DNA of 64,000 nucleotides from Deltaproteobacteria bacterium. GTDB taxonomy: Bacteria > CG2-30-53-67. The DNA is taken from assembly GCA_013151235.1 (NCBI GenBank), contig JAADIO010000032.1:2166-66165 (forward strand), given 5' to 3'. Every line of letters begins with the position of its first letter. The first letter of the stretch is position 1. The notes under the pieces are model-generated. The model saw nothing but the letters and a program-made list of their open reading frames with translations. It had not been told where the DNA came from and made no database searches. A program made the translations under genes and the position numbers. Below are positions 41,680-58,996 of this stretch, piece after piece.

Positions 41680-44232
41680 GTGTTGCGGAAACTTGAAGTT
41701 TGGCGGGTCGCCCTGTATACTCGGATTATGGGGTTGACAATGCACCATCAGTCGGGCCGGCTTCTGGAGATCCTGGACAGTCTGAATATTCCGCTCCTTC
41801 TTCTGGATTCCTCCGGCAAAGTGAAGTCCCACAACGGTATGGTCGAGGAGATCTTCGGGTATTCCTCCGCCGATCTGATCGGTCTTCCCTCGAATAACCT
41901 GATTGCACGATTCATAGCGTCCGAAAGTCCGGTCGGCGTCTCCTCTTCGTCCCCCGATCCTTTCCATGCAGATCTTTCTTCCCCCCTGCAACGGGAGGTG
42001 ACCTGCCGGAGAAAAAACGGTGGGGAATTCCCCGCACAGGTGACTTTCATCCCCTGGGGGGACGGGACCTTCCGGTTGATGGCGGTTCAGGATGTCTCCG
42101 GTCAACGGCGTCTGGAACAGCGTGCCACCCAGCGGACCAAGGAACTGACTCTCTTTAATACCTTCGCAGAGATCTTAAGCCGCGGTGGAAAACCCCGCGC
42201 GCTCCTGCAGGAGACCGTCGATATGCTTCCCGGGATCTTGGGGATTAAGGCCGCGATGATTCACCTACAGGATCAAGAGACCGGGAATCTTGTCCCCGCG
42301 GCCCGGCAGGGATTTGACGCTTCCTTTCTGGCTTCGGTAGGGGAGGTGGAACCGGGACAGGGGTTGTTCGGGAAGGTCCTGACCTCCGGGCTGCCTCTCC
42401 TCGTGGAGAAGGCCTCCGAGGATCCCCGAACGCTCAATTTTGATCTGCATCAGAGCGGTCTTCAAAGCTTTGCCTCCGTACCGGTTTCTTCAAAAGGCGC
42501 CGTCCGGGGGGTCCTGACCGTGGCGAGCCGGCGGGTCTCCTCTTTTACCGCCATGGACATGCAACTTCTTGATGCCCTCGGGAGCCAGTTGGGGATCGCC
42601 ATTGAGAATGCGGAACTGATTGCCCAGCTCAAAGAGAAGATGAACCAGATCGCCCTGACCAATGAATTGAGCGGGACGATCAATTCCAGCCTGAGTATCG
42701 GCACGATCTTCCGGATGATGGTTTCGGAAATCCGGAAGTTGATTGAATACGACCGTGCCGGCCTCTTGCTCTACGATGAGAAGAAGGGGAACCTGTTGAT
42801 CTTCGCCCTCGATACGGGGCTGAAGACGGAGATGACCCGGGGGGTTAAGGCACCCATCGAGGGGACCTCGGCCGGTTGGGCCTTAAAGCATAACCGGCCA
42901 TGGATCAATCGGGACCTGCTCTCGGAGATGCTCTTCCCGCTAGACGGAAAGCTGCGCGACGAGGGGATTCGCTCGACTATCAGCATTCCTTTGACCCAGG
43001 AGAAGAGGCTCGGCGTATTCAACCTCGATAGTCGGGAGGCGGCAAAGTATTCGGAAACGGATCTGCAGATCCTTCTGCCGGTGGCGAAACAGATCTCCAT
43101 CGCGCTGGAGAATGCCCTCCTCTTCGAGGAGATCTCGAGGGAAAAGAAGGAGTGGGAGAAGACCTTTGATGCATTTACGGACATGGTTTGGATCGACGAT
43201 CATCGTCAGCGGATCCTTCGGGCGAATCAAGCCCTGCTCCAGGGGGCAGAGGTGACCATGGCGGGGCTTTCGGACCTCCATTGCGCGAATCTGCTCGACC
43301 GGCTCGGCGTCGGTCCTTCCTGTCTGTGCTGCGAGACCGTAACCACGCAGCGCCAGACCTTCCGGGAGGTTCATGGGCGAGAGGGAAAGATCTTCCATTT
43401 CTGGGCTTATCCTCTCCTCGACGATGAGGGACAGCTCTATGCCGTCCTTCACTATCTCAAGGATGTGACGGAACGCAAAAGGCTGGAACAGCAGCTTCTC
43501 CGGGCGGACAAGCTTGCTTCCCTGGTGACGCTGGTGGCGGGAATCGCTCATGAGATCAACAACCCGCTCGGGATTATCGCCGGTTATGCCGAGGCCCTCC
43601 TTGATCGTGCCGGAGATCCTGCTCTTCGGGGGATGGAAGCCTTTGAGGATTTTCCCGAGTATCTGGATACCATCCACAAGGAGATCTTTCGCTGCAAGGA
43701 GACCCTGGGAAGTCTCCTGGAGTTTGCCCGGCCCCACGGGAGAAAGTCCCGGGAACTCGATATCAATGAACTGCTCAAAGAAGTGATCCTCCTGGTGAAT
43801 CACAAGGCCAAACGTCTTCACTGCCGGATTGAGCATCAGCTCAACCGGGAACTGCCGAAGATCTGTGCCGAACCGGGGAGTCTGCGACAACTCTTCATGA
43901 ATATCATCATTAATTCCCTCTACCATACGCCGGAAGGGGGAAAGATCGAGATTACGACGGAACTCAACCGGAACGATCCGAAAGAGATGATCCAGGTGGC
44001 GATTCGTGACACCGGTCCGGGGATCCGACACGAGGTGATCGACAAGATTTTTGATCCCTTCTTTACGACCAAACCGGTCGGGGAGGGGACCGGATTGGGG
44101 CTTTCCATCTGTCACAAAATTGCAGAGGAACACAACGGGGTGATCGATGTCGAAAGTGAGGTCGGCCGCGGCACGACCTTCTTTATCAAGCTGCCTGCGA
44201 AAGGGAACCATGGCCCGGATACTTGTCGTTGA
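41680..44232 (+). CDS. cytoplasmic sensor histidine kinase (PAS-GAF-GAF-PAS-HisKA-HATPase_c)
   Basis: H-box '[11 protein letters not shown]'. N, G1 and G2 boxes 'DTGPGI', '[10 protein letters not shown]'. No TM segments. Confidence 0.85.
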
Positions 44233-45574
44233 CGACGAAGAACCCTTTCGTCGCCTGCTGAAAAAAGAACTGACCCGGAAAGGGTTTTCCGTTGAGGTGG
44301 CCCCGGAAGGGGAAACGGCGCTGAAACTTTTGAAGGAGAGTGTCTTTGATCTGCTTCTCCTCGATGTTCTGATGCCGGGACTGGACGGAATTTCCGTGAT
44401 GAAACGGCTGCGTAAGGACCCGACGGCGCCGCCGGTGATCGTCTTGACGGGGAAGGCCACGATTGAAACGGCGGTCGAGGCGATGAAGAACGGCGCCTAT
44501 GACTATCTGACGAAACCCTACAAGCTTGATGAGTTGGAAATCGTCATCAACCGAGCCTGTGAATTCGGGAATTTGAAACACAAAAGCCGGGTACTTGAGC
44601 AGGAGCTGGTTCGAAAAGAATCCAAGGTTGAATTTATCGGGGAAAGCCCGCAGTTCCAGGCGATTTTGACGCTGATTCGCAAGATCGCCCCCACCGACTC
44701 CACGGTTCTTATCCAGGGGGAAAGCGGCACCGGCAAGGAGTTGGTGGCGAATGCCATCTGGCATCACAGCCGTCGGAATAATCTGCCTCTTATCGCCCTG
44801 AACTGTGCCACCCTTTCCGAAACCCTCATGGAATCGGAACTTTTCGGACATGAAAAAGGCGCCTTTACCACGGCTTACCGGACCAAGTACGGTATCGTAG
44901 AGGTTGCCGATAAGGGGACCCTCTTCCTGGATGAGGTGGCCGAGATGCCGATGGGACTCCAGGCCAAGCTCCTCCGCTTTCTTGATCGGGGGGAGTTCCG
45001 TCGTGTGGGCGGAAACAAGACCTTGCAGGTCGATGTCCGGATGATTGCTGCGACCAACAAGAATCTGGAGGAACGGGTTCGGCGGAAAACCTTTCGGGAA
45101 GATCTTTTCTATCGCCTCCATGTGATTAATATCAAGATTCCGCCGCTTCGCGAACGTCCGGAGGATATCCGGGACATTGCCCTTCATTTTGCCAAACAAT
45201 ATTCCCGCAAAATAGGAAAGTCGGTCTGGAAGATTGACGCCGATGCCCTGGGGATTCTCCGGCGTTATGCCTGGCCGGGAAATGTTCGGGAGCTGGAAAA
45301 TGAAATCGAGCGGAGTGTGATCCTCTGTGAAGGCGAGGCGATCGGTGTCCACGACCTTTCGATCGCCGATCGGGTTGCAACGCCCACCTCCGGGACGCAG
45401 CCGATGCTGGAGGAGATCGAGAAGGAGTGTATCCTCAGGGTCCTCCGGGAGACCGGCGGCAACCAGACCCGGGCCAGCAAAATCCTCGGCATCAACCGTA
45501 AAACCCTCTACCTAAAACTTCGCAAATACGGTGCACTTACATCGCAGGATAGCGAGATTCCCCCTGAGGTATAG
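44210..45574 (+). CDS. sigma-54-dependent response regulator (NtrC family: REC, AAA+ and Fis-type HTH)
   Basis: Receiver '[21 protein letters not shown]'. Walker A 'GESGTGKE', GAFTGA-like 'GAFTTA', R-finger. C-terminal HTH 'NQTRASKILGINRKTLYLKLRKYG'. The start overlaps the histidine kinase stop. Confidence 0.9.
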   Translation: MARILVVDDEEPFRRLLKKELTRKGFSVEVAPEGETALKLLKESVFDLLLLDVLMPGLDGISVMKRLRKDPTAPPVIVLTGKATIETAVEAMKNGAYDYLTKPYKLDELEIVINRACEFGNLKHKSRVLEQELVRKESKVEFIGESPQFQAILTLIRKIAPTDSTVLIQGESGTGKELVANAIWHHSRRNNLPLIALNCATLSETLMESELFGHEKGAFTTAYRTKYGIVEVADKGTLFLDEVAEMPMGLQAKLLRFLDRGEFRRVGGNKTLQVDVRMIAATNKNLEERVRRKTFREDLFYRLHVINIKIPPLRERPEDIRDIALHFAKQYSRKIGKSVWKIDADALGILRRYAWPGNVRELENEIERSVILCEGEAIGVHDLSIADRVATPTSGTQPMLEEIEKECILRVLRETGGNQTRASKILGINRKTLYLKLRKYGALTSQDSEIPPEV

Positions 45575-45662: not shown

Positions 45663-46070
45663 ATGTTTGATGCTGTTATGGCATGGGATTTGCTGTTCTA
45701 TTACGGTATGAACGATATCCTTTTATGCTCATCGGATCCGATCTTCATAAAGAATCTCTACGGGATTCTCCGGGAGGACGGTTACCGTGTCGATATTGCC
45801 GGCCATGCGTCTATGGCCGTCCGGATGGTTTTTGAAAAGAGTTTTGCAGCGGTGATCCTCGATTCCGATGCTGTCGGTATGTCTTCGGGGGAGGCTGCAC
45901 GTATCATTTTGAGAGTCATCTCGGGGATCCCTGTAATTCTTGCAGGGGAAAGTCTGTTACCCGAGGGGGCGTTTTCGATCAGCAAACCTCTGGATCTGGA
46001 GGAGGTCCTGGAGGTTCTTCGAACCGTTCGTTTAATTCATTTTCCGGAAAGGAGTGTGAGCGGCCTATGA
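45663..46070 (+). CDS. stand-alone CheY-like receiver domain protein (possibly atypical)
   Basis: Receiver-like pattern 'ILLCSSDP' (acidic pocket degenerate), 'AVILDSD', 'PVILAGE', 'SKPLD'. The stop overlaps the start of the next gene. Confidence 0.4.
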   Translation: MFDAVMAWDLLFYYGMNDILLCSSDPIFIKNLYGILREDGYRVDIAGHASMAVRMVFEKSFAAVILDSDAVGMSSGEAARIILRVISGIPVILAGESLLPEGAFSISKPLDLEEVLEVLRTVRLIHFPERSVSGL

Positions 46071-47098
46071 CACCACGAGAGATTATTTTGCAGGCCTTTG
46101 AAGGGGGGAAGCCCGAGCGGGTGCCGGTTTCTCTCTTCGGTGCCGGCATGTGGAGCATCAAGAGTTTTGAAAGCAGTTTCGAGGAGTTGTCGACCGATGC
46201 AGCGAAGATGTCGGATATGTTGGTGACCCTGTCGGACAAACTGTTGTGTGATATTGTCTATGCCGGCTCCGGGTACAACAACTTTCACGCCGCTGCGTTC
46301 GGCGGGGAGATCAAGTTTCGTTCCATGGGAGCGCCGGATCTGAAGGAACATCTCGTTTCCTCCGTGGAGGACATTGAAAAATTTGATCTATCGGCGCTCG
46401 ACAATGAAGCGACCCTCAATATCGTCAAGGATGCCCTGCATCGTACACGGGAACAGATCGGTGACAAATATGTGGTGAGCATGACGGCCTGGGGACCCTT
46501 TACCCTCGGGGCACGTTTCGTCGGGGAAGAGACGATGATGAAGGCGACCTTCAAGAATCCCGACCTGGTCCACCGGGTCACTGATTTTGCAACGGACCTT
46601 CTGATCCATCTTTATGAACCCCTGGTTGATGACGGGACGCTGGAAGTGATCAGTCTGGCCGATCCGACGGCCTCGGGGGACCTGATTTCCCGCAAGCAGT
46701 TTGAAAAGTTTGCCGTTCCCTACCTGAAAAAGTTTACCGACTGGGCCAGATCGAAGAAGGCGTATACCCTCCTGCACATTTGCGGGAATACGACGGACCG
46801 CCTGGATGTGATGCCCGGGACCGGGGCGAGCTGTATCAGCCTGGATCACAAAACCGATATCGGGAAGGCCTATGAGGCACTCCACGGAAGGATCTGTTTT
46901 GCCGGCAATGTGGATCCTGTCGGTGTCATGCTTCAGGGCTCGGTCGACGATGTGGAGAGGGCCTGCCGGGAGGTGATCGAAAGGGCCGGCACGGAGGGGG
47001 GGTTCGTTCTCATGCCGGGATGCGATATTCCGCCGACCGTCCCTTATGAAAATATTCGGAAATTCATCCAGGTCGCGCGGGAGTGGAAATTGACATAA
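46067..47098 (+). CDS. uroporphyrinogen-decarboxylase-family methyltransferase (MtaA/MtbA-like methylcobamide:acceptor or substrate:corrinoid methyltransferase)
   Basis: 343 aa, URO-D/MtaA TIM-barrel family. Conserved His/Cys/Glu zinc-site region around 'HICGNTTDRLD..'. Confidence 0.75.
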   Translation: MTPREIILQAFEGGKPERVPVSLFGAGMWSIKSFESSFEELSTDAAKMSDMLVTLSDKLLCDIVYAGSGYNNFHAAAFGGEIKFRSMGAPDLKEHLVSSVEDIEKFDLSALDNEATLNIVKDALHRTREQIGDKYVVSMTAWGPFTLGARFVGEETMMKATFKNPDLVHRVTDFATDLLIHLYEPLVDDGTLEVISLADPTASGDLISRKQFEKFAVPYLKKFTDWARSKKAYTLLHICGNTTDRLDVMPGTGASCISLDHKTDIGKAYEALHGRICFAGNVDPVGVMLQGSVDDVERACREVIERAGTEGGFVLMPGCDIPPTVPYENIRKFIQVAREWKLT

Positions 47099-47251
47099 GG
47101 CGAAGAGGGGGTAGTAAGTCCGTGTTGTTCAGGTCCCATTGACCTTGTGAGAGAGGGGGTTGTGATGGGTACATTCTGGGAAAATCTCAAAAATATGTTT
47201 GTGCGGACTGTTCCTCCGGGAGCAGCCGGGCAATCGCAGAAAGGAGCTGCC

Positions 47252-47698
47252 ATGGCTGACGAAAAGAAGATGACGCTGGAAGAAGTAAATCAGTATATGC
47301 AGGAAAAGTGCGGGTTCGTGCCGAGGATGTTCAAGATTATCAATACCGTGACGCCGGAGCCCGGCCGAACCTTTGCCGATTTCTACGCGAGCATTTTCGG
47401 GGAGGGCGCACTTTCCAAGAGCGTCAAGGAATTGATGTTCATGTCCGGTGGTGTCGCCTACTGTTCGCCTCGCTGCATCATTCATGTCGTACCGGCGATC
47501 AATGCCGGTGCAACGTCGGAACAGGTCTTCGAGGCGGCGTCCGTCGGGATGATCCTGGCCGGTTTTGTCCCGAACGGTCCGGGAATTCCCTATGCCTTTG
47601 AATATGCCTTGAAGTGCATTGACATCGACACGAAGTTCCGGAAGGGCGAGGAGTGGGAATACCTGCCGCCCCCGAAATTTGATCACGGGATTTACTGA
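47252..47698 (+). CDS. carboxymuconolactone decarboxylase / AhpD-like family protein
   Basis: 'YCSPRCIIH' is an AhpD-like CxxxxH motif. A strong RBS 'AAAGGAG' precedes the ATG at 47252. The longest ORF, from 47147, is less likely. Confidence 0.6.
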   Translation: MADEKKMTLEEVNQYMQEKCGFVPRMFKIINTVTPEPGRTFADFYASIFGEGALSKSVKELMFMSGGVAYCSPRCIIHVVPAINAGATSEQVFEAASVGMILAGFVPNGPGIPYAFEYALKCIDIDTKFRKGEEWEYLPPPKFDHGIY

Positions 47699-47775
47699 GC
47701 GCTTCAGCCGCGGGAGGGGGGAATCCCCCCTCTTTTGCCCCCCTCCTGCGGATTTTACCCATTTTTAATTTAAGG

Positions 47776-48747
47776 ATGATACATATGTTCACCTTTGAAA
47801 CGGAACAAAAGGTTTGCAAGATCGGCGGATTAAAGGTTGGAGGCCGACCGGCGGAAAATCCCCCTCTCCTGATTGCCTCCATGTTTCATAACAAGGACCG
47901 AATCCTGCAGGATCGTAAAGGGAATTTCGACCGCGTCCGGGCGACAGAACTGATCCGGAAGCAGGAAGAGCTGACCGAAGCCACCGGCATTCCCGGTATG
48001 GTGGCCATGATGGCCAATTCCGCCGGGGAAGCAAAGATCTATATCGATTTCTTTGTGGAAACCACCGACATGCCCTTCGCCATCGATATGTGGGTTGCCG
48101 AGAAACGGATGGCCGCGACGGAATATGTGGCGAAGTTAGGTCTGCAGGACCGGTTTGTCTATAACAGTATTACCCCCTGGGACAAGGACATTCCGGGGCA
48201 GGTGCAGCGGGTCAAAGAGCTCGGCATCAAACACGTATTTGTCCAGGCCTTTGATGATGCCGATCAGTCTCCGAAAGGACGGCTGACCTCATTGGAAAAA
48301 TTGCTTGATCAGGGAGCGGGTGATTTCGAGTCGGTCCTTGTCGATTCCTCGGTGATGAATCTTCCCGCTGCCTCTTTCTCCATGCTGGCAAACCGGATGA
48401 TCAAAGAGAAGTTAGGGCTCCCCTGCGGAAGCGCCTATTCCAATGGCACCCACATGTGGAAAGAGGCCAAGGAGATCTGGGGGCTCGACGGTTTCAAGGC
48501 GATGGATGCTGTGGCCCAGGGGATGTCGACGGCCCTCTGGTCGGATTTTAATTTTTACGGTCCCATCGTGACGGCGCCCCGGATCTTCCCCGGTGTGGCC
48601 ACGGCAAACATCCTGCTTTCGACCCTGGTCTTTGATGAAACCGGGGAGGTCTCGGAAAATGAAGACCTGCCGATCCGGAAGCACTTTTCGGAATTTCTTG
48701 AGAAGATGATCGCCGGTGGTGCAAGAAAAAAGGCGCAGGCCCGATAA
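47776..48747 (+). CDS. MtrH-family pterin-binding methyltransferase (methyl-H4folate/H4MPT:corrinoid methyltransferase)
   Basis: N-terminus 'MFTFETEQKVCKIGGLKVGGRPAENPPLLIASMF' matches the archaeal MtrH N-terminus. 323 aa. Confidence 0.7.
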   Translation: MIHMFTFETEQKVCKIGGLKVGGRPAENPPLLIASMFHNKDRILQDRKGNFDRVRATELIRKQEELTEATGIPGMVAMMANSAGEAKIYIDFFVETTDMPFAIDMWVAEKRMAATEYVAKLGLQDRFVYNSITPWDKDIPGQVQRVKELGIKHVFVQAFDDADQSPKGRLTSLEKLLDQGAGDFESVLVDSSVMNLPAASFSMLANRMIKEKLGLPCGSAYSNGTHMWKEAKEIWGLDGFKAMDAVAQGMSTALWSDFNFYGPIVTAPRIFPGVATANILLSTLVFDETGEVSENEDLPIRKHFSEFLEKMIAGGARKKAQAR

Positions 48748-48780
48748 TCGATAACCCTAATATCAGAAGGAGAAAACGTT

Positions 48781-49803
48781 TTGACGGAAACCATGACATC
48801 AAGAGAACGGGTACTGAGACTGTTTCGGGGGGAACCGACGGATCGTCCGGCCTGTTTCAGCGGGATGGGTAATGCGACAACGGAAGGGCTGAACCAGCTC
48901 GGCTACAAGTTTGCCCAGGTTCATCTCGATGCGAAACAGATGGCGGAGACGGCCATGACGACGCCCCGGCTTTTCGGGTTTGACGCCTGCGTCCTTCCGT
49001 TTGACCTCTGTGTCGAAGCGGAAGCGATGGGCGCAAGGATCAATACCTATTCGAACTCGGACGACCTGCTCTATCCCACGATCAAAGAGAAGGTAATCCA
49101 TGGCGAAGAGGAGATGGAGATCAACCTCCCCTCCGACCTGGTCACGCGCGGGCGGATCCCCCTCATGAAGGAGGCGATCGGGATCGCCAGGGAAACCATC
49201 GGAGAGACCGTGGCGATCGGTTCTTACCTGCTCGGACCGTTTACGCTCGCCGGTCAGATCATGGAACTGAACGATCTGCTGAAACTTTCTTTCAAGAAAC
49301 CGGACAAGGTCGGGAAACTTCTGGCCGATCTGACCTGCGTGATCGTGGCGGTTGCGAAGGAGTATGAAGCGGCCGGTGTTGACTACCTGACGGTACGGGA
49401 GATGGGTGCAACCTCCGACGTGTTGAGCCCCAGGGTTTTCAAGAGCCTGATACTGCCCCATCTCAAGAATATTTTCGAACAGATCAGTGTTCCCAGTGTG
49501 CTGCATATCTGCGGCAAGACGAACAACATCGTCGTTCCGATGGTGGAAACGGGTGCGACGGCCATCAGTGTTGACCAGAAGAATGATGTGGTCGACAGCC
49601 GGAAAAAGCTCGGATCCGATGCCCTGATTTTCGGGAACTACGACCCCTATAACGTGCTTGTTTCGGGTACGCCGGAACTGGTCAAAGAGGCGATGCAAAA
49701 GTGTTTGGAAGACGGCGTCAGTGCCGTCTGGCCCGGCTGTGATATCTGGCCCACGGTGCCGGCGGAGAATTTTAAGGCCATGATGGAAACCATGAATGAA
49801 TAG
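48781..49803 (+). CDS. second URO-D/MtaA-family methyltransferase
   Basis: Paralog of 46067..47098 with the same length and fold. Contains 'HICGKTNN'. Confidence 0.75.
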   Translation: MTETMTSRERVLRLFRGEPTDRPACFSGMGNATTEGLNQLGYKFAQVHLDAKQMAETAMTTPRLFGFDACVLPFDLCVEAEAMGARINTYSNSDDLLYPTIKEKVIHGEEEMEINLPSDLVTRGRIPLMKEAIGIARETIGETVAIGSYLLGPFTLAGQIMELNDLLKLSFKKPDKVGKLLADLTCVIVAVAKEYEAAGVDYLTVREMGATSDVLSPRVFKSLILPHLKNIFEQISVPSVLHICGKTNNIVVPMVETGATAISVDQKNDVVDSRKKLGSDALIFGNYDPYNVLVSGTPELVKEAMQKCLEDGVSAVWPGCDIWPTVPAENFKAMMETMNE

Positions 49804-49817
49804 TCAGGAGGCATGGA

Positions 49818-50513
49818 ATGGCAACTGAAGAGAGAACCCGGGAAATCCTGGAGAAAATGGAGAAAGCCGTGATTGAGTATGACGAAGATGCGGCCAAGGA
49901 GGGTGCCCAGGCGGCCCTCGATGAAGGGGTCAATCCCAATGATGCCATCTTCGACGGTCTGGTCAGCGGGATGCAGGAAGTCGGCAAGCTCTTTGAGGCC
50001 GAAGAGTATTTCGTCCCGGAGCTGCTCATGTGCGCCGATGCCCTTTATGCCGGTCTCGATATCTTAAAACCCCATGTGAAACAGCTCGACCTGGGGGTGA
50101 AAGGCTCGGTGGTGATCGGTACCGTGGAGGGAGATGTTCACGATATCGGGAAGAACATCGTGAAGATGATGTTCGATGTCGCCGGGTTTGAGGTCCATGA
50201 CCTGGGACGGGATGTGCCGCTGGATCAGTTTGTTGAGGAACAGATCAAAACCGATTCCGAACTGGTCTGCCTCTCCGCCATGATGACGACGACCATGATG
50301 GGGATGCAGAAGGTCATCGAGGACCTGAAGAAGAAGAATCCCGATATCAAGATCATGATCGGCGGTGCTCCCGTTTCCGGTGATATCGCCGAGAAATGGG
50401 GAGCGGACGGCTATGCCGATGACGCGACCAATGCCCTCGCAGATGCCATCAACATGGTCAGCTCTCTGAAAAAGATGAAGGAAGAAGCGGAAGCCAGGGA
50501 AAAACGGAAGTGA
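49818..50513 (+). CDS. corrinoid (B12-binding) protein, MtaC/MtbC-like
   Basis: N-terminal cap helix domain plus a Rossmann B12 domain. 'GDVHDIGKNIV' is the DxHxxG motif, and 'SAMMTTT' and 'MIGGAP' motifs are present. Confidence 0.85.
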   Translation: MATEERTREILEKMEKAVIEYDEDAAKEGAQAALDEGVNPNDAIFDGLVSGMQEVGKLFEAEEYFVPELLMCADALYAGLDILKPHVKQLDLGVKGSVVIGTVEGDVHDIGKNIVKMMFDVAGFEVHDLGRDVPLDQFVEEQIKTDSELVCLSAMMTTTMMGMQKVIEDLKKKNPDIKIMIGGAPVSGDIAEKWGADGYADDATNALADAINMVSSLKKMKEEAEAREKRK

Positions 50514-51175
50514 GCAGTGCATTCTTGAAAAAGATGCTCCTCGGTTCCGGGGCGACCGTGGTGGGTGTGGCGGAACTGGATGCGTATCTTGACGGAGAGA
50601 TCCGTCATCTCAACCGAGGGGTTTCCATCGCGGTGGACCGGACGCTTCGGGAAGATACCCTGAAACATCTGGGCCGGCTGCAGAAAAAAGTGGTCCGCTA
50701 TCTGAAAGGGAAGGGATTCCGTACCCTCAGTATCCCCCCTGATTCGGACCGCATCCGGAATAAGTTTGTTGCCGAACTTTATTCCCTTTTGACCCACAAG
50801 ATGGCAGCCACCTGCGCGGGGATCGGCTGGATCGGGCGGAATGGGTTACTGATCAGTCCCCATTTCGGGCCGCGGCTTTCCCTGGCGACGGTCCTGACCG
50901 ATGCGCCCCTGAAGAGCGATATTCCCTATGAACAGAGCCGTTGCGGCAATTGCCGGCTTTGTGTTGACTACTGCCCGTCGAAGGCGATCACGGGCAAAAC
51001 CTGGTCCCGGCGGGACCCTTACAGCGGCCTGGTCAAGCCCCACCGGTGTCGTGTACACAAAGAGGGGGCCCGGGGAGTGACGGATCGGCCCAATTGCGGT
51101 CTCTGCCTGCAGATCTGCCCCTACGGGCGGGCGAAAGGGAGGACCAAACCGAAAGATGTTATGGAGATTGTATAA
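50510..51175 (+). CDS. 4Fe-4S dicluster ferredoxin-domain protein (QueG/RdhA N-region-like)
   Basis: Two Cys clusters, 'CGNCRLCVDYCP' and 'CGLCLQICP'. The N-terminal region resembles DUF1730. Confidence 0.5.
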   Translation: MSSAFLKKMLLGSGATVVGVAELDAYLDGEIRHLNRGVSIAVDRTLREDTLKHLGRLQKKVVRYLKGKGFRTLSIPPDSDRIRNKFVAELYSLLTHKMAATCAGIGWIGRNGLLISPHFGPRLSLATVLTDAPLKSDIPYEQSRCGNCRLCVDYCPSKAITGKTWSRRDPYSGLVKPHRCRVHKEGARGVTDRPNCGLCLQICPYGRAKGRTKPKDVMEIV

Positions 51176-51177
51176 AG

Positions 51178-53154
51178 ATGAGCAGCAAATATAAAGTGAA
51201 TTTTCAGCCCTCGGGAAGTCGGGGGGAAGTGGATGCAGGGAAAACCCTCCTTGATGCGGCCCAGCGTTTAGGGGTTGATCTGGAATCAGTCTGTGGCGGC
51301 AAGGGGACCTGCGGGAAATGCAAGGTCCGTGTTGAGGAAGGATATTTTGAAAAAGATGCCATGGAATCAAGAATGTCCCATCTGTCTCCTCTGACGGACG
51401 TGGAACGCAAATTCATCAAACCGGAAGACGGACCCCGAATGCGTTTGGCCTGTGCCGCCGAGGTGCGGGGGGATGTGAAACTTTTCGTGCCGGAAAAGTC
51501 CCGTGCCGGGAAACAGATCGTTCGCAAGGCCGCAAAAGATATTACGATCGCCCTCGACCCCGCCGTGAAAAAATATTGTATCCGGCTGGATGCCCCGACC
51601 CTGCACGATCTTTCCAAGGGGGATCTTGAACGGATTCTGGGGGCGCTGAAAATGGAGTACAACCTGGAAAACCTTGCCATAGACTATCTGGTCCTCCAGA
51701 AGCTCCAGGATATTCTTCGGGCCGGGAACTGGGAGGTGACGGTTTCGGTCTGGAAAGGCAAAGAGATCATCAAGGTGGAGCCGGATTTTGTGGACGTCTC
51801 CTACGGTCTGGCCGTGGATGTCGGGACGACGACGGTGGCAGCCTATCTGTGTGATCTGAACACGGGCAAGGTGCTTAACACCGAATCGATGATGAATCCC
51901 CAGGTCCCGTACGGCGAAGATGTCATGTCGAGGATTACTTACGCCATGACCCATGACGACGGTCTTGCGATCATGCAGAAGGCAATCATCGAGGGCTTAA
52001 ACGATCTGATTGAGAAGATTACCGCCGACATCCGTTCCAACGGAACGCCCGGCGGTACCTCCATCGTCGATATGACGGTGGTTTTTAATACCGCCATGCA
52101 TCACATCTTCCTGGGATTCAACCCGGTCTACATCGGACGGTCTCCCTTTATTCCTGCCGTGCAGGATTGTGTTGATCTCAAGGCACGGGATCTGGGACTT
52201 CAAATCAATGAAGCTTCCTACATTCATGTCCTTCCCATTGAGGCCGGTTTTGTCGGCGCCGACAATGTGGGGGTTCTCATCGCCGAAGAGCCGTACAATT
52301 CCGAGGACAATGTCCTGATTATCGACATCGGGACGAACGGTGAACTCCTCCTCGGGAACAAGCATGCGGTCTGTTCCACTTCCTGCGCTACGGGACCGGC
52401 CTTTGAAGGGGCCCAGATCAAGTTCGGAATGCGAGCCGCCCCGGGAGCGATTGAAAAGGTCCGGATCGATCCGGAGACGAAAGAGCCACAGTACAAGGTG
52501 ATCGGCAAGGCCGACTGGCATACCCATATCAAGGATGTCAATGCCAAGGGGATCTGCGGTTCCGCCATCATCGACGTGATTGCCGAGATGTTCAAGGCGG
52601 GAGTCATCGACAAGTCCGGGAAATTCGTCAAGGATCTTGACATACCCCGCATCCGGAAGGATGCCGACGGCAAACCGGAGTACGTCCTGGCCTGGGCGGA
52701 TGAAACCTCCATCGGGAGCGACATCACCGTGACGCAGGGGGATGTCCGGGCGTTGCAGCTCGCCAAGGGGGCACTCTACGCCGGGGCGAAACTGATGATG
52801 CAGAAGATGGGGATCGAAAAACTCGACCGGGTGGTTCTGGCGGGGGCCTTCGGGAGTCATATCAATACGGAGGCCTCGATGACCCTCGGGATGTTCCCCG
52901 ATTGTGCCATCGAAAAGGTCTATGCCGTGGGGAATGCCGCCGGCGACGGGGCGATCATGGCCCTGCTGAACCTGGGGAAACGACGTGAGGCCGGCGAAAA
53001 GGCCCGGTGGGTCCGGTTCCTGGAGATTGCCGTGGAGCCGGAATTTGAAAAGGAATTCATGAAGGCGATGCATATTCCGCACATGAAGGATCCTTTTCCC
53101 AATCTCAAGTCGTTGCTGGAGAAGGACCATTTGCCGGTGACGATCAAGGGGTGA
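51178..53154 (+). CDS. RACo-type ATP-dependent reductive activator of corrinoid proteins (N-terminal plant-type 2Fe-2S ferredoxin plus ASKHA ATPase, COG3894-like)
   Basis: N-terminus 'CGGKGTCGKCKV' is a [2Fe-2S] motif, followed by a large ASKHA-like domain ('VDVGTTTVAAYL'). 658 aa. Confidence 0.75.
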   Translation: MSSKYKVNFQPSGSRGEVDAGKTLLDAAQRLGVDLESVCGGKGTCGKCKVRVEEGYFEKDAMESRMSHLSPLTDVERKFIKPEDGPRMRLACAAEVRGDVKLFVPEKSRAGKQIVRKAAKDITIALDPAVKKYCIRLDAPTLHDLSKGDLERILGALKMEYNLENLAIDYLVLQKLQDILRAGNWEVTVSVWKGKEIIKVEPDFVDVSYGLAVDVGTTTVAAYLCDLNTGKVLNTESMMNPQVPYGEDVMSRITYAMTHDDGLAIMQKAIIEGLNDLIEKITADIRSNGTPGGTSIVDMTVVFNTAMHHIFLGFNPVYIGRSPFIPAVQDCVDLKARDLGLQINEASYIHVLPIEAGFVGADNVGVLIAEEPYNSEDNVLIIDIGTNGELLLGNKHAVCSTSCATGPAFEGAQIKFGMRAAPGAIEKVRIDPETKEPQYKVIGKADWHTHIKDVNAKGICGSAIIDVIAEMFKAGVIDKSGKFVKDLDIPRIRKDADGKPEYVLAWADETSIGSDITVTQGDVRALQLAKGALYAGAKLMMQKMGIEKLDRVVLAGAFGSHINTEASMTLGMFPDCAIEKVYAVGNAAGDGAIMALLNLGKRREAGEKARWVRFLEIAVEPEFEKEFMKAMHIPHMKDPFPNLKSLLEKDHLPVTIKG

Positions 53155-53164
53155 GACGTCGAAA

Positions 53165-53482
53165 ATGACCCGTGTGAAAATCGACCCGGGCGTCTGTGGT
53201 TTTCCCGCTCTCGTGACGGTCGAAAAAAAGGACAGGCAGCACTTTCGGGTAACGATCGAGTCCAATTGTGAAATGGTACGGAAATTGGGAGAGGAAATTG
53301 CATCCCTGACGATGCAGGATGCCTTCATCCGGTTTTCCGATAACCGGGTCTATGAGAAGGCCTCAACCTGTCTGAAACACACGGCCTGTCCGGTCCCGTC
53401 GGGCATCCTGAAGGCCCTGGAGGTTGAGGCCGGTCTGGCGGTGCCGCGGAACGTAACGGTGGAATTTCTTGCCGGGGAGTGA
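53165..53482 (+). CDS. small hypothetical Cys-containing protein
   Basis: 105 aa. Translationally coupled, with its stop overlapping the next start. No known motif. Confidence 0.35.
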   Translation: MTRVKIDPGVCGFPALVTVEKKDRQHFRVTIESNCEMVRKLGEEIASLTMQDAFIRFSDNRVYEKASTCLKHTACPVPSGILKALEVEAGLAVPRNVTVEFLAGE

Positions 53483-54744
53483 CAGTGATGAGCGACTATC
53501 TTCTGCATTGCCGGAAATGCGGTGCTCTTTTGCAGCCGCAAGAGTCCGCTTCCGGGGTTCATTGTCCCGATGCCTTGATGAAAAGTGAATTTCCCGACCG
53601 GCGGTTCCGCCTTGAGGGGCGTCGGGGGATCTGGCGCTTCAACTGGCTTCCGGTGCATGCACCCCGTGAAGATACCGCCGCACCGGTGGTTTATCACGCG
53701 GAGGGGCTGGGGCGGCGTCTTGGACTTCGGCATCTCTTTGTCGTATTCAACGGTTTCCGGCCGGAAAAGGGGGCGGAGATCGAGACCTGTACCTTCAAAG
53801 AGTTCGAGGCCGAGGTTGTTCTGCAAAACGCACGGGAACTTGGAAAGGGCGGCCTCGTCGTCGCCTCGGCGGGGAATACCGCCCGCGCCTTTGCCCACCT
53901 TTCGATTCGGACCGATTTCCCCGTGTTCATTGTGGTTCCACGCATGTGTCTTCATGAGATGTGGTTTCTGAAGTCGAAGGAGTCCGTTCCGACGGCTGTC
54001 CTGCAGGACGGTGACTATGCCGACGCCATCGATGTGGCCGAGCGGATCGCCCGGATTTCAGGTATTCCCTTCGAAGGAGGGGTACGCAATTCGGCCAAGC
54101 GGGACGGACTCGGTGTCGTACTGATGGAAGCGGTCTCCTTCCTCGGCCGCCTGCCCGATGCCTATTTTCAGGCAGTCGGGAGCGGCGCCGGGGCGGTGGC
54201 CACCTGGGAGATGGCGGAACGGTTTTTGCGGGACGGCCGTTTCGGGAACCGGCTTCCCCGTCTCCACCTGGCACAGAATCTCCCCTTTGCACCCATGTTT
54301 CATGCCTGGAGACGGGGGGAACGGAATCTGAAACCTGAGGACCTTGATCCGGGCCTGATTGAGAAGATTTCCACCCGGGTTCTGTCCAGTCGTTATCCCG
54401 CCTATTCGATTCTGGGGGGGGTCTACGATGCCTTGACGGCATCCGGGGGGAACATGTACGGGATTACCAACGGAGGGATGGCCGAGGCCCGGACGCTCTT
54501 CGAAGAAACGGAAGGGGTCGATATCGTTCCCGCGTCGGCCATTGCCCTGGCGGCACTGAAAGAGGCCGTAGCGGCGGAAGAGGTCTCTCCCGACGAGCTG
54601 ATCCTGCTCAATATCACCGGGGGTGGGGAAAGGGCCATCCGGCGTGCGGGACGTGCCGTCCCGGTGGCGGGAGACGCAATCTCGAAAAATATTACGGATG
54701 ATGAAATCGAAGAACTTTTATGCACAGTCCTGAAAAAGAGCTGA
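53479..54744 (+). CDS. threonine-synthase-fold PLP enzyme, cysteate-synthase-like, with N-terminal Cys4 zinc-ribbon
   Basis: 'CRKCGALL....CPDAL' forms a zinc ribbon. 'TCTFKEFEA' carries the PLP-lysine motif and 'ASAGNTARAF' the glycine loop of fold-type II enzymes. 421 aa. Confidence 0.6.
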   Translation: MTVMSDYLLHCRKCGALLQPQESASGVHCPDALMKSEFPDRRFRLEGRRGIWRFNWLPVHAPREDTAAPVVYHAEGLGRRLGLRHLFVVFNGFRPEKGAEIETCTFKEFEAEVVLQNARELGKGGLVVASAGNTARAFAHLSIRTDFPVFIVVPRMCLHEMWFLKSKESVPTAVLQDGDYADAIDVAERIARISGIPFEGGVRNSAKRDGLGVVLMEAVSFLGRLPDAYFQAVGSGAGAVATWEMAERFLRDGRFGNRLPRLHLAQNLPFAPMFHAWRRGERNLKPEDLDPGLIEKISTRVLSSRYPAYSILGGVYDALTASGGNMYGITNGGMAEARTLFEETEGVDIVPASAIALAALKEAVAAEEVSPDELILLNITGGGERAIRRAGRAVPVAGDAISKNITDDEIEELLCTVLKKS

Positions 54745-55856
54745 TTTCGATTCTGAAAGGGGCGGGCGTCGATCTTCTAGCGACCCTTCCCTGTGACCGG
54801 GTGCGCAACCTGATCGCCCTTGCGGATGCATCGATTGACCGCATCCCTCTGACCCGGGAAGAAGACGGCGTCGGGATTTGTGCCGGAGCGGCCCTGGGCG
54901 GGCGGCGGCCGGCCATGATTGTTCAAAGCTCCGGGATCGGCAATATGATCAACGCCCTTCTCTCCCTGACCGGATTCTATGAACTTCCCTTGGCACTTTT
55001 CGTCAGTCAGCGGGGAGTCTATAAGGAGGGGATCGACGCCCAGGTTCCGATGGGCAAGGTCCTGCCGGGGCTTTTTGAATCCGTGGGGATCGGTTACACT
55101 CTGATCGACCGGTCCGAAGCGATCCCCGCCATCGGGAAGGAACTGGAGTCTCTCTACCGGGAGAAACGGATCCATGCTTTCCTGCTCAGCCCGGCCCTCT
55201 GGGAAGGCTCCCCCCTGGAGATTTCCCAGAGCCTCAAACGCCGCCATTGTGAAGCGATCGATCCTGAACGGGGTCGGGAGAATCCGGCCCCGGTCCTGAC
55301 CCGCTATGGGGTCCTTTCGACCCTCTGTCCCGAACTGGAAGGGCAGGCGGTGATCTGCAATCTGGGGGTCCCGTCGAAGGAACTTCATGCCCTCCTTCCC
55401 CAACCATCGAATTTCTACATGCTGGGCAGCATGGGATTGGCGACGCCCATCGGTCTCGGTGTGGCCTTCTCAACGGACAAACCGGTTTTCGTCATTGACG
55501 GGGACGGCAGTCTGCTTATGAATCCCGGGACCCTGGCGACGGTCGCCATGGCCCGACCGGGGAACCTGACCATTATTGCTGTTGACAATGCCTCCTACGG
55601 TTCCACGGGGGATCAACCGACCCTGACGGCCGGTTGTGTCGATCTGGAACTGGTGGCCCGTGGATTCGGTATCTGTAACTCTGTGAAGGCTGCGTCCCGG
55701 GAGGAGCTGCGGGAGGCGTTGCAGACCCCCTTCGGCGGTGCCCTCTTTGTCCATGCCCTTGCCCTGCCCGGAAATGCCGCCGTCCCCAATATCCCCCTGG
55801 GTGCCCGGGAGATCAAGGAGGGGTTCCAGGCGTTCCTGGAATCCGGGAGGTTATAG
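54720..55856 (+). CDS. fused sulfopyruvate-decarboxylase-like (ComDE-type) thiamine-diphosphate enzyme
   Basis: About 380 aa. N-terminal PYR-like half and C-terminal PP half with 'VIDGDGSLLMNPGTLATVA' (GDG...N ThDP motif). Size and layout match fused ComDE/Ppd-type decarboxylases. Confidence 0.6.
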   Translation: MHSPEKELISILKGAGVDLLATLPCDRVRNLIALADASIDRIPLTREEDGVGICAGAALGGRRPAMIVQSSGIGNMINALLSLTGFYELPLALFVSQRGVYKEGIDAQVPMGKVLPGLFESVGIGYTLIDRSEAIPAIGKELESLYREKRIHAFLLSPALWEGSPLEISQSLKRRHCEAIDPERGRENPAPVLTRYGVLSTLCPELEGQAVICNLGVPSKELHALLPQPSNFYMLGSMGLATPIGLGVAFSTDKPVFVIDGDGSLLMNPGTLATVAMARPGNLTIIAVDNASYGSTGDQPTLTAGCVDLELVARGFGICNSVKAASREELREALQTPFGGALFVHALALPGNAAVPNIPLGAREIKEGFQAFLESGRL

Positions 55857-55891: not shown

Positions 55892-56731
55892 TCAAGGATC
55901 GGGGAGACGGCCACCGTCCGGAGTTGAAAAGTGATCGGGGTTTTTCCGATACTTTTCCGGGATGGTTGCGATCCTCGGTACCGGGCTCAAGGGGTATTGA
56001 TCGACCAGCAGCGTGCAGCCGTAACTCTTCCGTAATTGTTCCGCCGTCAAGACCTCTCCGGGGCGTCCGGTCTTTTCAATTTCCCCCTCCTTCAGAAGAA
56101 GAAGGCGGTCTCCGTAGAGGGCCGCCAGGTTCAGGTCATGGGAAATCATGATCACCGTGATCCGCCGGGTGCGGCGGAGCCGTTCCATCAGATCCATAAT
56201 GCGGGATTGGTGGGAAGGATCGAGGGAGGCCGTCGGTTCATCGAGAAAGATGATCCGGGGTTGCTGGCAGATGGCCCGGGCGATCATGACTCGCTGCCGT
56301 TCTCCGCTGCTTAACTGATCCAGCCGTCTTTCCGCCAGGTGTGTAATGTCGGTAAAGTGCATCGCCTCTTCGGCAATTCGGTAATCCTCACGTTTTTCCA
56401 TGCTCCAAAGCCCGAGATGAGGAGAGCGGCCCATCAGGACCGTTTCCGTAACGGGAAAGGGGAAATCAAGGGGGACCTGCTGTGGGACCACGGCGAGAAG
56501 ACGGGAGAGGGATCGCCGTGAATAATGATGAAGCGCTTTGCCCAGAATGTTAATCTCCCCCCTTTGCGGCTGGATCATGCCGGCGCAGGCCTTGAGTAGT
56601 GTGGTTTTTCCCGCGCCGTTGGGGCCGATGATGATGAAGAATTCCTCCTCCGGGACGTGGAAGGTGAGCCCGTGAAGAATCCCTTTATGTGCATAGTCGA
56701 GATGGAGGTTTTCGACGGAGAGGGCGGTCAT
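55892..56731 (-). CDS. ABC transporter ATP-binding protein (BtuD/FecE family)
   Basis: Walker A 'GPNGAGKTT', signature 'LSGGERQR', Walker B 'IIFLDEPT'. Confidence 0.85.
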   Translation of the reverse strand: MTALSVENLHLDYAHKGILHGLTFHVPEEEFFIIIGPNGAGKTTLLKACAGMIQPQRGEINILGKALHHYSRRSLSRLLAVVPQQVPLDFPFPVTETVLMGRSPHLGLWSMEKREDYRIAEEAMHFTDITHLAERRLDQLSSGERQRVMIARAICQQPRIIFLDEPTASLDPSHQSRIMDLMERLRRTRRITVIMISHDLNLAALYGDRLLLLKEGEIEKTGRPGEVLTAEQLRKSYGCTLLVDQYPLSPVPRIATIPEKYRKNPDHFSTPDGGRLPDP

Positions 56732-57735
56732 TGGTTTGCTCTCCAGAGAAGGTAGACAAAGAGGGGCGCTCCGATCATGGCCGTGATGATTCCCACGGGC
56801 ATTTCCCCTCCGACCGACAGGATGCGTGCCAGGAGGTCGCAGAGAATCAGGTAGGTTGCCCCCCCCAGGATGGAAGCGGGGATCAGCAGGCGATGATCCG
56901 GTCCCAGCACCAGCCGCAGGAGGTGCGGAATCACCAGTCCGACGAATCCCACCAGGCCGGACTGACAGACCACCAGGCTGACCATCAACGACGTCAGGAC
57001 CAGGAGAACCAGGGTGACGGTTTTGACATTTACCCCCATGGAGAGAGCGCTTTCCTTTCCCATTACGAGGAGATTCATCGGACGGGCCAGCAGAAAGATG
57101 ACCAGGAAACAGAGCAGGATCGGAAAGAGGACCGGCAGTTGCCGGGTGCTGACCCGGGAGAGATCTCCCATCAGCCAGAAGAGAATCTGTTGGACCTGTT
57201 CGGATCGGGTAATCGAGATCAGGAAGAGAATGACGGCGGCGCAGAAGGCATTCATCATGACGCCTCCGAGGAGCAGTGCATCCCTGCTCTGCCGGGGCCG
57301 CCCCATGACGAGCAGGAGGATCAGGCCCAGGACCGCCATACTGCCGGTGAAGGCCGCCAGGGGGACTCCCGGAAAAGGGGAAAGCCCGGCCAGCAGCCCG
57401 CCGATCGCCCCGATTGCCGAACCGCCCGAAATGCCGAGGATGTAGGGTTCGGCCAGGGGGTTTCGCAGGAGTGCCTGAAAAACCAGCCCGCCGAGGGAGA
57501 GGGTGGAACCGACGGCGGCTGCCAGGATGACCCGGGGAATCCGGATGCGCCGGATGATGGTGGCGGCGATTGAGTTCTGATCTCCGTAGCCGGCCAGGAT
57601 GGCGAGAGTCCCGGACAGGTCGCTGCCGGAAGAGCCCATGGAGACGCCGAGGAAGGCCGCGATCATCAGCAGTGTGCCGAAGAAGAGTGTGATCGTGATG
57701 AGCTTCCGGGGGAGAGGATGGAACCTAACGTTCAT
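56728..57735 (-). CDS. ABC permease, FecCD/BtuC family
   Basis: About 10 TM helices, with 'TAMIGAPLFVYLL' near the C-terminus. Start trimmed to 'MNVRF' to avoid a large overlap with the upstream gene. Confidence 0.8.
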   Translation of the reverse strand: MNVRFHPLPRKLITITLFFGTLLMIAAFLGVSMGSSGSDLSGTLAILAGYGDQNSIAATIIRRIRIPRVILAAAVGSTLSLGGLVFQALLRNPLAEPYILGISGGSAIGAIGGLLAGLSPFPGVPLAAFTGSMAVLGLILLLVMGRPRQSRDALLLGGVMMNAFCAAVILFLISITRSEQVQQILFWLMGDLSRVSTRQLPVLFPILLCFLVIFLLARPMNLLVMGKESALSMGVNVKTVTLVLLVLTSLMVSLVVCQSGLVGFVGLVIPHLLRLVLGPDHRLLIPASILGGATYLILCDLLARILSVGGEMPVGIITAMIGAPLFVYLLWRANQ

Positions 57736-58699: not shown

Positions 58700-58990
58700 T
58701 TCGCAATCCCAACGCCCGGGCCTGAAGAAAAAAAAACCCAGACCAATAAATATTGATCCGGGGATGTCCCTTTTTATCCACAGAACCGGTCGGTGAATCT
58801 CTGACCTCGAAGATTCGGCCGCTCATTTCCAGGCAGGTCTTCTGACTCTCGGTTCGTCCTACTTACCGTGTCTTCCCATCGTATTTCCCGACAGTGACAT
58901 CTTTCGGTTTTCGTCCCCGATCACAGCGGCGGGCCCGTCCCCGTTTTTACGGGATTCCCTTCTCAGCTCCTCATGGAAGCACCTGAAAAT
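58700..58990 (-). ncRNA. cobalamin (AdoCbl) riboswitch with expression platform, upstream of btuF-like gene
   Basis: The minus strand reads '..AGGGAATCCCGT..ACGGGGAC..GTCACTGTCGGGAA..GATGGGAAGAC..GAGAGTCAGAAGACCTGCCTGG'. It contains the B12 box (rAGYCMGgAgaCCkGCc) and the CACTG/GGGAAG elements of the E. coli btuB leader. It is followed by a U9 tract. Confidence 0.7.
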
Positions 58991-58996
58991 ATCCGA

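Follow-up and report, generated by a model that had tools for sequence, protein, structure and literature searches.

A bacterial operon that combines corrinoid methyl-transfer genes with genes for predicted early steps of coenzyme M synthesis

To our knowledge, methyl transfer dependent on coenzyme M (CoM, 2-mercaptoethanesulfonate) counts as a hallmark of methanogens and of alkane-oxidising archaea, and we know of CoM in bacteria only from aerobic alkene/epoxide metabolism, where it is made by a different pathway. Here we describe an operon at positions 45663-55856 on the plus strand of a 64-kb stretch of DNA from a 'Deltaproteobacteria' metagenome-assembled genome (MAG); we refer to this whole stretch as the window. 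Its eleven genes combine a set for corrinoid methyl transfer with a predicted cysteate synthase (CS) and a predicted sulfopyruvate decarboxylase (ComDE). They probably encode a sigma-54-regulated corrinoid methyl-transfer system, with CoM as the most likely thiol substrate, together with the first committed steps of CoM synthesis. Support of every kind is computational here and comes from sequence: domains were called on window open reading frames (ORFs) with Pfam and NCBIfam profile models, and relatives were sought in a scan with one genome per species, which gave 61 loci (loci carry L numbers below). In full-text literature searches, no account turned up of bacterial corrinoid methyltransferase clusters that contain cysteate synthase, ComDE or Xcb genes.

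Several described systems share parts with this operon. The CoM machinery of Methanosarcina (MtaA/MtbA/MtsA, Mtr and CS-ComDE-MMP16) is archaeal, whereas the host of the window is bacterial. Common to both are zinc thiol methyltransferases of the MtaA family, a cognate corrinoid protein, an MtrH-type pterin methyltransferase, and a cysteate synthase gene followed by a fused ComDE gene, as in the archaeal loci L053-L055. The window differs in having a bacterial RACo-type activator instead of RamA, and it has neither the CoM synthase MMP16 nor, as far as was seen, a methyl-CoM reductase; its pterin is presumably tetrahydrofolate. The membrane subunits (MtrA-G) and sodium-pumping architecture of the Mtr complex are absent from both operon and window. 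The predicted system would therefore be soluble and unable to pump ions, and its resemblance to Mtr is one of function, not of membership.

A bacterial supply of CoM is provided by XcbABCDE of Xanthobacter autotrophicus Py2, a pathway that has been reconstituted in vitro with CoM as its product; in that organism CoM is used in the aerobic carboxylation of epoxides and not for methyl transfer by corrinoid proteins (PMC9457059). The window has no Xcb homologue and would use the archaeal phosphoserine route instead; Xcb homologues flank the same methyltransferase module in three other loci (L067, L068 and L071).

The closest published concept is that of type 1 mlp clusters. These are bacterial and comprise several MtaA-like His-Cys-Cys proteins, a corrinoid protein and a RACo/Ram activator, and S-/Se-methyl transfer has been proposed for them (Kountz and Balskus, PMC10418091). 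Several His-Cys-Cys proteins, a corrinoid protein and an activator are also found in the window. Type 1 mlp clusters have neither a folate/pterin methyltransferase nor a link to CoM genes, whereas the window adds MtrH, DUF6951 and CS-ComDE, and we therefore place the operon outside this type. MetH follows the same modular logic, with methyl-folate, B12, zinc-thiolate and reactivation modules; in the window these would be separate polypeptides of unrelated folds (MtrH, URO-D, RACo), and the thiol would be CoM, not homocysteine. Finally, the sulfate reducer Desulfotomaculum (Desulfofundulus) kuznetsovii has a methanol operon with MtaB/MtaC and two URO-D 'MtaA' proteins. The report on it takes tetrahydrofolate as the methyl acceptor of MtaA in acetogens and discusses no thiol carrier for the sulfate reducer (PMC5770442). 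In the related loci L063, L064 and L066, a module of MtrH, corrinoid protein, RACo, DUF6951 and a counterpart of the second URO-D protein of the window (URO-D#2) lies beside MtaB-MtaC; the window has no MtaB.

Predicted products of the operon

Eleven plus-strand ORFs fill 45663-55856. A preliminary description of this DNA had reported eleven chained same-strand genes, and Pfam and NCBIfam searches reproduced its ORFs and domains. In order, the genes are:

45708..46070, plus strand: small receiver-like protein, 120 aa (weak Response_reg match; 120-aa orthologue in L001)
46067..47098, plus strand: URO-D#1, MtaA-family methyltransferase (Pfam URO-D, 208 bits)
47147..47698, plus strand: CMD/AhpD-like protein (Pfam CMD; start codon uncertain)
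47776..48747, plus strand: MtrH-family methyl-pterin:corrinoid methyltransferase (Pfam MtrH, 185 bits)
48781..49803, plus strand: URO-D#2, MtaA/CmuA-family methylcobamide:thiol methyltransferase (NF004889, TIGR01463)
49818..50513, plus strand: corrinoid (B12-binding) protein (B12-binding and B12-binding_2 domains; TIGR02370, 212 bits)
50510..51175, plus strand: protein with two [4Fe-4S] clusters (cluster region QueG/reductive-dehalogenase-like; cysteines conserved)
51178..53154, plus strand: RACo-type ATP-dependent reductive activator (Fer2, RACo_linker, RACo_middle, RACo_C_ter; AcsV-like, 491 bits)
53165..53482, plus strand: DUF6951 small protein (Pfam; conserved cysteines; weak fold match to IscU/SufE)
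53479..54744, plus strand: predicted cysteate synthase (TIGR03844; PDB 9k3c)
54720..55856, plus strand: predicted fused ComDE-type thiamine diphosphate (ThDP) decarboxylase (TIGR03845, TIGR03846)

The domains named in the preliminary description stand, and its '4Fe-4S protein' and 'small Cys ORF' can now be specified as QueG/reductive-dehalogenase-like in the cluster region and as DUF6951, respectively. Its gene order does not stand, as the CMD and MtrH genes lie between the two URO-D genes. Two of its gene starts also had to be moved: RACo begins at ATG 51178 and not at GTG 51046, where the longest ORF opens, and the first gene most likely begins at ATG 45708, not at 45663.

The tenth gene product is a pyridoxal phosphate (PLP) enzyme of the threonine synthase fold, and the profile check proposed earlier came out clearly on the side of cysteate synthase. 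It scores 448.7 bits on the TIGR03844 equivalog (EC 2.5.1.76; cutoff 324.9) against 68.9 bits on the best threonine synthase model. Among solved structures, the match to cysteate synthase 9k3c (301 bits) far exceeds that to any threonine synthase (52 bits or less). The PLP-lysine motif is conserved, with TFKEFEA aligning to SFKETEA of 9k3c, and a start at ATG 53488 yields 418 aa, the length seen in relatives. The predicted reaction is the formation of L-cysteate from O-phosphoserine and sulfite. A sulfonolipid fate for the cysteate was considered and set aside; among the Pfam matches of window ORFs there is no domain suggesting a cysteate acyltransferase. A cysteate-synthase-like gene of 41% identity is also present in Streptomyces sp. 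NBC_00083 (L060, 10001-11221), with neither ComDE nor a methyltransferase module nearby, and may belong to a natural-product pathway.

The eleventh gene overlaps the tenth and encodes a fused ThDP decarboxylase. Its ComD half passes TIGR03845 (179.2 bits, cutoff 147.95), and the predicted reaction (EC 4.1.1.79) converts sulfopyruvate to sulfoacetaldehyde. The archaeal CS-ComDE pair is about 45% identical to that of the window, and in the archaeal loci L054 and L055 the CoM synthase MMP16 precedes CS-ComDE.

Both URO-D proteins carry the motifs LHICG and PGCDI, which align with the zinc ligands of Methanosarcina mazei MtaA (His-x-Cys and the distal Cys). These motifs are kept in 22 of 23 orthologues of URO-D#1 and in 42-43 of 43 orthologues of URO-D#2. 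A His-Cys-Cys zinc sphere marks S- or Se-methyltransferases, while O-demethylases of the superfamily replace one or both cysteines (PMC10418091); an O-demethylase role is therefore disfavoured for both proteins. URO-D#2 passes NF004889, the 'methylcobalamin:CoM methyltransferase' subfamily (256.4 bits, cutoff 244), as well as the MtaA/CmuA model TIGR01463 (238.6 bits, cutoff 235.4), and matches M. mazei MtaA (4ay7) with E = 8e-45 and conserved zinc ligands. We propose that it is a CoM methyltransferase. URO-D#1 scores 176.5 bits on the mtaA_cmuA model, under its cutoff, and has orthologues in L065 (45%) and L067 (41%); its proposed role is that of a second thiol/thioether:corrinoid methyltransferase. 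Pairwise identity among URO-D#1, URO-D#2 and MtaA is about 27-34%, each URO-D protein being about 31-32% identical to MtaA; MtaA, MtbA and MtsA likewise share about 30% with one another (PMC10418091).

The remaining proteins fit a corrinoid methyl-transfer set. MtrH passes NF002142 (333.7 bits, cutoff 287) and scores 169 bits on the mtrH equivalog, whose cutoff is 271. The corrinoid protein has its DxHxxG motif in the form GDVHDIG. The [4Fe-4S] protein (50510..51175), with homologues in L066 and L068, would act as an electron carrier. In the CMD protein the motif YCSPRCIIH is invariant across 34 sequences; in L065 its first Cys is Met. DUF6951 accompanies the methyltransferase module at every locus. 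We considered DUF6951 as a stand-in for the [2Fe-2S] thioaldehyde reductase XcbA and rejected it: XcbA has 313 aa, its homologue in L068 carries DUF7714 and shows no similarity to the window proteins, and DUF6951 is present in L068 together with that homologue. Similarly, the CMD protein and the QueG-like Fe-S protein were rejected as helpers specific to CS-ComDE, both being present also in modules without CS-ComDE.

Conservation of the module and its neighbours in other lineages

Conservation was counted over those 43 bacterial loci whose sequence extends 8 kb or more upstream of cysteate synthase. In 40 of them the operon as a whole recurs, with URO-D#2, the corrinoid protein and RACo in the same order. 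These loci are mostly Nitrospirota MAGs, with cysteate synthases about 60% identical to that of the window. Because the same order and the CS/ComDE overlap recur on independent contigs in so large a share of the loci, the arrangement lies far beyond chance.

Most of the loci (36/43) have two extra genes between DUF6951 and cysteate synthase, for example at L001 8138-10004 and likewise in most of L003-L061. The first encodes a DsrM/NarI-like membrane cytochrome b. The second encodes an HdrD-like protein of 400 aa (Fer4 + CCG) whose best curated match is TfrB, a subunit of the CoM/coenzyme B (CoB)-dependent thiol:fumarate reductase. The pair is absent from the window, L002, L017 and L027, and a homologous NarI-like and HdrD-like pair lies near the module in L065 and L070. 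It would fit a thiol/disulfide cofactor. Two further neighbours were seen on the 3' side. In 13 Nitrospirota loci a gene for an SsuA-family binding protein follows shortly after ComDE (e.g., L040 13163-14119, minus strand). In 38 loci a conserved 200-aa protein without a Pfam match is encoded 3' of the operon, a position held in L001 by a LuxR-type response regulator.

In a search of 1.8 billion representative proteins, the relatives closest to URO-D#2 beyond this clade were bacterial; they are 40-53% identical to it and come from MAGs of Desulfotomaculum, Anaerolineae, Desulfobacterales and Dehalococcoidales. These loci share a conserved module: a URO-D#2-type protein, MtrH, DUF6951, RACo and the corrinoid protein. 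Some also have URO-D#1, CMD, the Fe-S protein or the HdrD-like protein. We searched for Xcb genes by tblastn with the XcbA-E proteins of X. autotrophicus, using the reference genes from pXAUT01. The window and the Nitrospirota loci gave no XcbA-E homologue. In L067, L068 and L071 (the last of these Candidatus Promineifilaceae, of Chloroflexota type), XcbA-E homologues are interleaved with the module:

XcbA homologue: 51% identity to X. autotrophicus
XcbB/ComA homologue: 47% identity to X. autotrophicus
XcbC homologue: 44% identity to X. autotrophicus
XcbD homologue: 48-53% identity to X. autotrophicus
XcbE homologue: 46% identity to X. autotrophicus
Xcb regions: L068, 13512-16824 and 3238-4617; L067, 1-2303; L071, 1-1802

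The XcbA homologue in L068 carries Pfam DUF7714, and this homology would give the DUF7714 family a function.

A third kind of neighbour is found in L065 and L070, where an SsuA-family sulfonate ABC importer sits in mid-module. Methanosarcina takes up CoM through an ABC system of the Ssu type (PMC11844431). In the same two loci the importer is followed by an MtrH::URO-D#2-type fusion of 662-665 aa (L065 9900-11888; L070 10001-11998), which precedes the corrinoid protein. Six such fusions were found, those of L065 and L070 and four further proteins. Such fusions indicate that the half-reactions with pterin and thiol are parts of one pathway. In turn, three unrelated supply routes (CS-ComDE, Xcb and Ssu import) adjoin one and the same module, which points to CoM as its thiol substrate and is the strongest argument available for this assignment. 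The earlier suggestion of methyl transfer involving a CoM-like thiol thus gains support from the zinc sites, the conservation of the operon and the Xcb/Ssu neighbours in other lineages. The same suggestion held that this would be novel in bacteria; that applies to the pathway and its use, and not to the cofactor, CoM being known in aerobic alkene-oxidising bacteria.

In the Peptococcaceae/Desulfotomaculum MAGs (L063, L064 and L066) the module follows MtaB-MtaC and an MtaA-like gene. In L064 (Desulfotomaculum sp., 207-4947) and L066 (Peptococcaceae CEB3, 1000-5810), MtaB-MtaC-CobW and a RamA-like activator lie directly 5' of the module, and the MtaA-like gene scores 323 bits on the archaeal MtaA model. 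L066 has two tandem DUF6951 genes.

A candidate role for coenzyme M and competing explanations

In the mechanism we propose, cysteate synthase would make L-cysteate from O-phosphoserine and sulfite, a housekeeping aminotransferase encoded outside the operon would convert it to sulfopyruvate, and ComDE would decarboxylate this to sulfoacetaldehyde. The aldehyde would become the thiol outside the operon, for instance through a COG1900-type sulfurtransferase, or non-enzymatically with sulfide. A Methanosarcina mutant without the CoM synthase MMP16 grows without CoM if sulfide is at least 0.4 mM (PMC11844431), and a dedicated thiol-forming gene therefore need not sit in the operon. The corrinoid protein, which RACo would keep as Co(I) using electrons supplied by the Fe-S proteins, would shuttle methyl groups among three methyltransferases: MtrH handling methyl-tetrahydrofolate, URO-D#2 handling CoM and methyl-CoM, and URO-D#1 a second thiol or thioether. 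In sum, the system would link CoM to the folate C1 pool and could be seen as a soluble equivalent, in function, of the Mtr complex of methanogens, or as a split MetH. Where the HdrD/DsrM-like pair is present, it would reduce a CoM-containing disulfide with quinol. By a rough estimate of our own from textbook free energies, methyl-tetrahydrofolate is about 25 kJ/mol more stable than methyl-tetrahydromethanopterin (methyl-H4MPT), so that methyl transfer to CoM would yield about -5 kJ/mol from methyl-tetrahydrofolate and -30 kJ/mol from methyl-H4MPT. On this estimate the exchange between folate and CoM sits close to equilibrium, which would allow a soluble enzyme without ion pumping to work in both directions.

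Several observations weigh against this proposal. All loci are known from MAG or metagenome sequence alone. Both URO-D proteins fall under the cutoffs of the MtaA and MtbA equivalogs, URO-D#2 with 242 bits (cutoff 400) and 171 bits (cutoff 600) and URO-D#1 with 146 and 150 bits; they are best regarded as family members, not as orthologues of archaeal MtaA/MtbA. Of the residues named as the MtaA pocket, T28, Q29, R70, L75 and Q94 (PMC13618148), only L75 is kept in URO-D#2, a difference to be read with caution because the archaeal CoM methyltransferases are themselves only about 30% identical to one another; we infer the CoM specificity of URO-D#2 from genomic context only. The ComE half of the ThDP enzyme scores 206.2 bits on TIGR03846, slightly under the cutoff of 221.5, although this is still its best-scoring model. 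No aminotransferase for the step from cysteate to sulfopyruvate is encoded in the operon. Neither the window nor about 20 kb around the bacterial CS loci holds a homologue of MMP16/COG1900 or XcbA (queries: L055 MMP16 and XcbA), which leaves the thiol-forming step unaccounted for; in the 64-kb window itself there are no MMP16/COG1900, Xcb or mcr genes. The modules of L063, L064 and L066 have no CoM gene within 10 kb. In addition, with only one corrinoid protein, methyl groups could formally reach folate without passing through CoM, and the proposal does not account for what becomes of methyl-CoM where methyl-CoM reductase is absent.

These points bear most directly on an alternative in which CoM is no carrier at all. 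The module would exchange the methyl groups of methylated sulfur or selenium compounds (methanethiol, dimethylsulfide, methylmercaptopropionate, methylselenides) with folate, and the sulfonate made by CS-ComDE would serve elsewhere, as an osmolyte, in sulfite detoxification or toward taurine/isethionate, being merely co-regulated. The His-Cys-Cys zinc site cannot tell CoM from other thiols or selenols, and related enzymes have been assigned to methyl-S or methyl-Se metabolism in type 1 mlp clusters (PMC10418091); the operon without a thiol-forming gene and the Peptococcaceae modules without nearby CoM genes suit this explanation as well. However, coincidental co-regulation hardly explains why three unrelated sets for CoM supply or sulfonate uptake are in or beside the module in separate lineages, and the Xcb enzymes yield CoM itself, not merely a sulfonate. 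We consider this alternative unlikely.

It is also conceivable, and in our judgement distinctly improbable, that CoM is made as a low-molecular-weight redox thiol, or as the cofactor of a CoM-dependent enzyme encoded elsewhere, while the URO-D proteins act on other thiols. The HdrD/DsrM-like disulfide reductase pair is common in the clusters, and overproduction of CoM is reported to protect methanogens from oxidative stress (PMC12713407). By contrast, the MtrH::URO-D fusion and the translationally coupled CoM genes inside methyltransferase operons argue for CoM as a direct substrate, and no other CoM-dependent enzyme was seen at any locus.

The preliminary description had offered, as its own alternative, a methoxydotrophic O-demethylase module coupled to catabolism of cysteate or sulfolactate through sulfoacetaldehyde, and this now looks very improbable. 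The combination of URO-D, MtrH, corrinoid protein and RACo does resemble the O-demethylase layout of bacteria and Methermicoccus. Against it, both URO-D proteins keep both zinc cysteines, the feature that separates the two groups (PMC10418091); cysteate synthase forms a C-S bond and is biosynthetic; and the window contains no desulfonating enzyme of the Xsc, SuyAB, CuyA or IslA type.

A phosphonate pathway, with the ThDP enzyme as phosphonopyruvate decarboxylase and the PLP enzyme acting on a phosphonate amino acid, is barely credible: the closest solved structures are indeed putative phosphonopyruvate decarboxylase subunits (68 and 57 bits), but the 191 bits on the phosphonopyruvate decarboxylase model are far under its cutoff of 312.5 and about half of the summed ComD and ComE scores (179 + 206 bits), the genuine archaeal ComDE of L053 (Methanoperedens contig; 229.6 bits on TIGR03846) gives the same score pattern, the partner gene is cysteate synthase, and no scanned ORF of the 64-kb window has a PEP mutase domain. 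The earlier assignment as ComDE, and the check for PEP mutase suggested with it, thus both came out in favour of sulfopyruvate.

Taking CoM as the thiol substrate, a broader proposition can be put forward, which we regard as plausible but would not yet call probable: that strictly anaerobic bacteria from several lineages use CoM as a methyl carrier, a role so far unrecognised. A soluble methyl-tetrahydrofolate:CoM system composed of URO-D#2, MtrH, the corrinoid protein, RACo and DUF6951 would serve it as the bacterial equivalent of Mtr, with supply by CS-ComDE, Xcb or Ssu-type import according to lineage, and methyl-CoM would be central to a metabolism that has no methyl-CoM reductase. The lineages concerned, named with the same reserve, might include many Nitrospirota and Chloroflexota-type MAGs besides this 'Deltaproteobacteria' MAG, and perhaps also Peptococcaceae that use methanol. 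Many of them would keep CoM reduced by a quinone-linked HdrD/DsrM-like disulfide reductase. If this is true, anaerobic bacterial C1 and methyl-sulfur metabolism would gain a new cofactor, and a soluble enzyme performing the Mtr reaction would be defined. Metagenome reads of cs, comDE, mtaA and mtrH, which are often taken as methanogen markers, would need rereading. CoM or methyl-CoM could be exchanged between bacteria and methanogens or anaerobic methane oxidisers, and CoM analogues used as 'specific' inhibitors of methanogens, such as 2-bromoethanesulfonate, would be predicted to hit these bacteria. The 'two MtaA' proteins of methanol-grown sulfate reducers would acquire a testable role.

Regulation and genomic surroundings

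The genes of the operon are closely packed. The junctions, in order, are a 4-nt overlap between the receiver-like gene and URO-D#1, a 48-nt gap to CMD, a 77-nt gap between CMD and MtrH (the widest in the operon), a 33-nt gap to URO-D#2, a 14-nt gap to the corrinoid protein, a 4-nt overlap with the 4Fe-4S protein, a 2-nt gap to RACo, a 10-nt gap to DUF6951, a 4-nt overlap with cysteate synthase (or a 5-nt gap with the alternative start) and a 25-nt overlap between cysteate synthase and ComDE, which is kept in relatives. The following features flank or precede the operon:

41680..44232, plus strand: sensor histidine kinase (PAS-GAF-GAF-PAS-HisKA-HATPase; Pfam), directly 5' of the sigma-54 activator
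44147..45574, plus strand: NtrC-type sigma-54 activator (receiver, AAA+ and Fis-type HTH; Pfam)
45679..45693, plus strand: near-consensus sigma-54 -24/-12 element TGGCATgggatTTGC, inside the ORF called at 45663
55892..58690, minus strand: BtuCDF-type ABC importer (ATPase, FecCD permease, periplasmic binding protein; Pfam)
58815..59001, minus strand: cobalamin riboswitch (Rfam RF00174, 104.7 bits), preceding the ABC importer

The span 45679-55856 is very probably one sigma-54-dependent operon of 11 genes. The TGGCATgggatTTGC element is kept 5' of the orthologous first gene in L001, L027 and L042, and a variant of it is found in L017. As the element lies inside the ORF called at 45663 and is conserved upstream in relatives, the first gene most likely starts at ATG 45708; homology of the receiver-like protein to its relatives begins at MNDILLCSS. 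The distance from the -12 element to this ATG is only 14 nt, and 13-16 nt in L001 and L027, which implies that the transcript has a very short leader and that the first cistron would be leaderless or almost so. A homologous activator is also found 5' of the operon in L001. The true start of the activator in the window is probably near 44230, and the histidine kinase (41680..44232) is the probable sensor for the operon. Scans of the operon for sigma-70 promoters and terminators gave nothing decisive. Within the gap between CMD and mtrH there is a G+C-rich stem-loop, GGGGGGAATCCCCC, at 47716-47729 (plus strand), with a T-rich tract behind it; attenuation within the operon or RNA processing are possible roles.

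The ABC importer is encoded convergently to the operon, with 36 nt between its end and ComDE. With the riboswitch in front of it, this is a probable corrinoid uptake system, and the layout suggests that B12 uptake has been placed beside a B12-dependent operon. Farther away, a large exopolysaccharide/exosortase cluster (EpsH, DUF3485) occupies positions 14-24129 on the minus strand of the window; it also codes for glycosyltransferases, an asparagine synthase, a radical SAM/SPASM protein, a DUF362 protein and FemAB-like acyltransferases. Elsewhere the window contains type IV pilus/secretion genes and chaperone genes.

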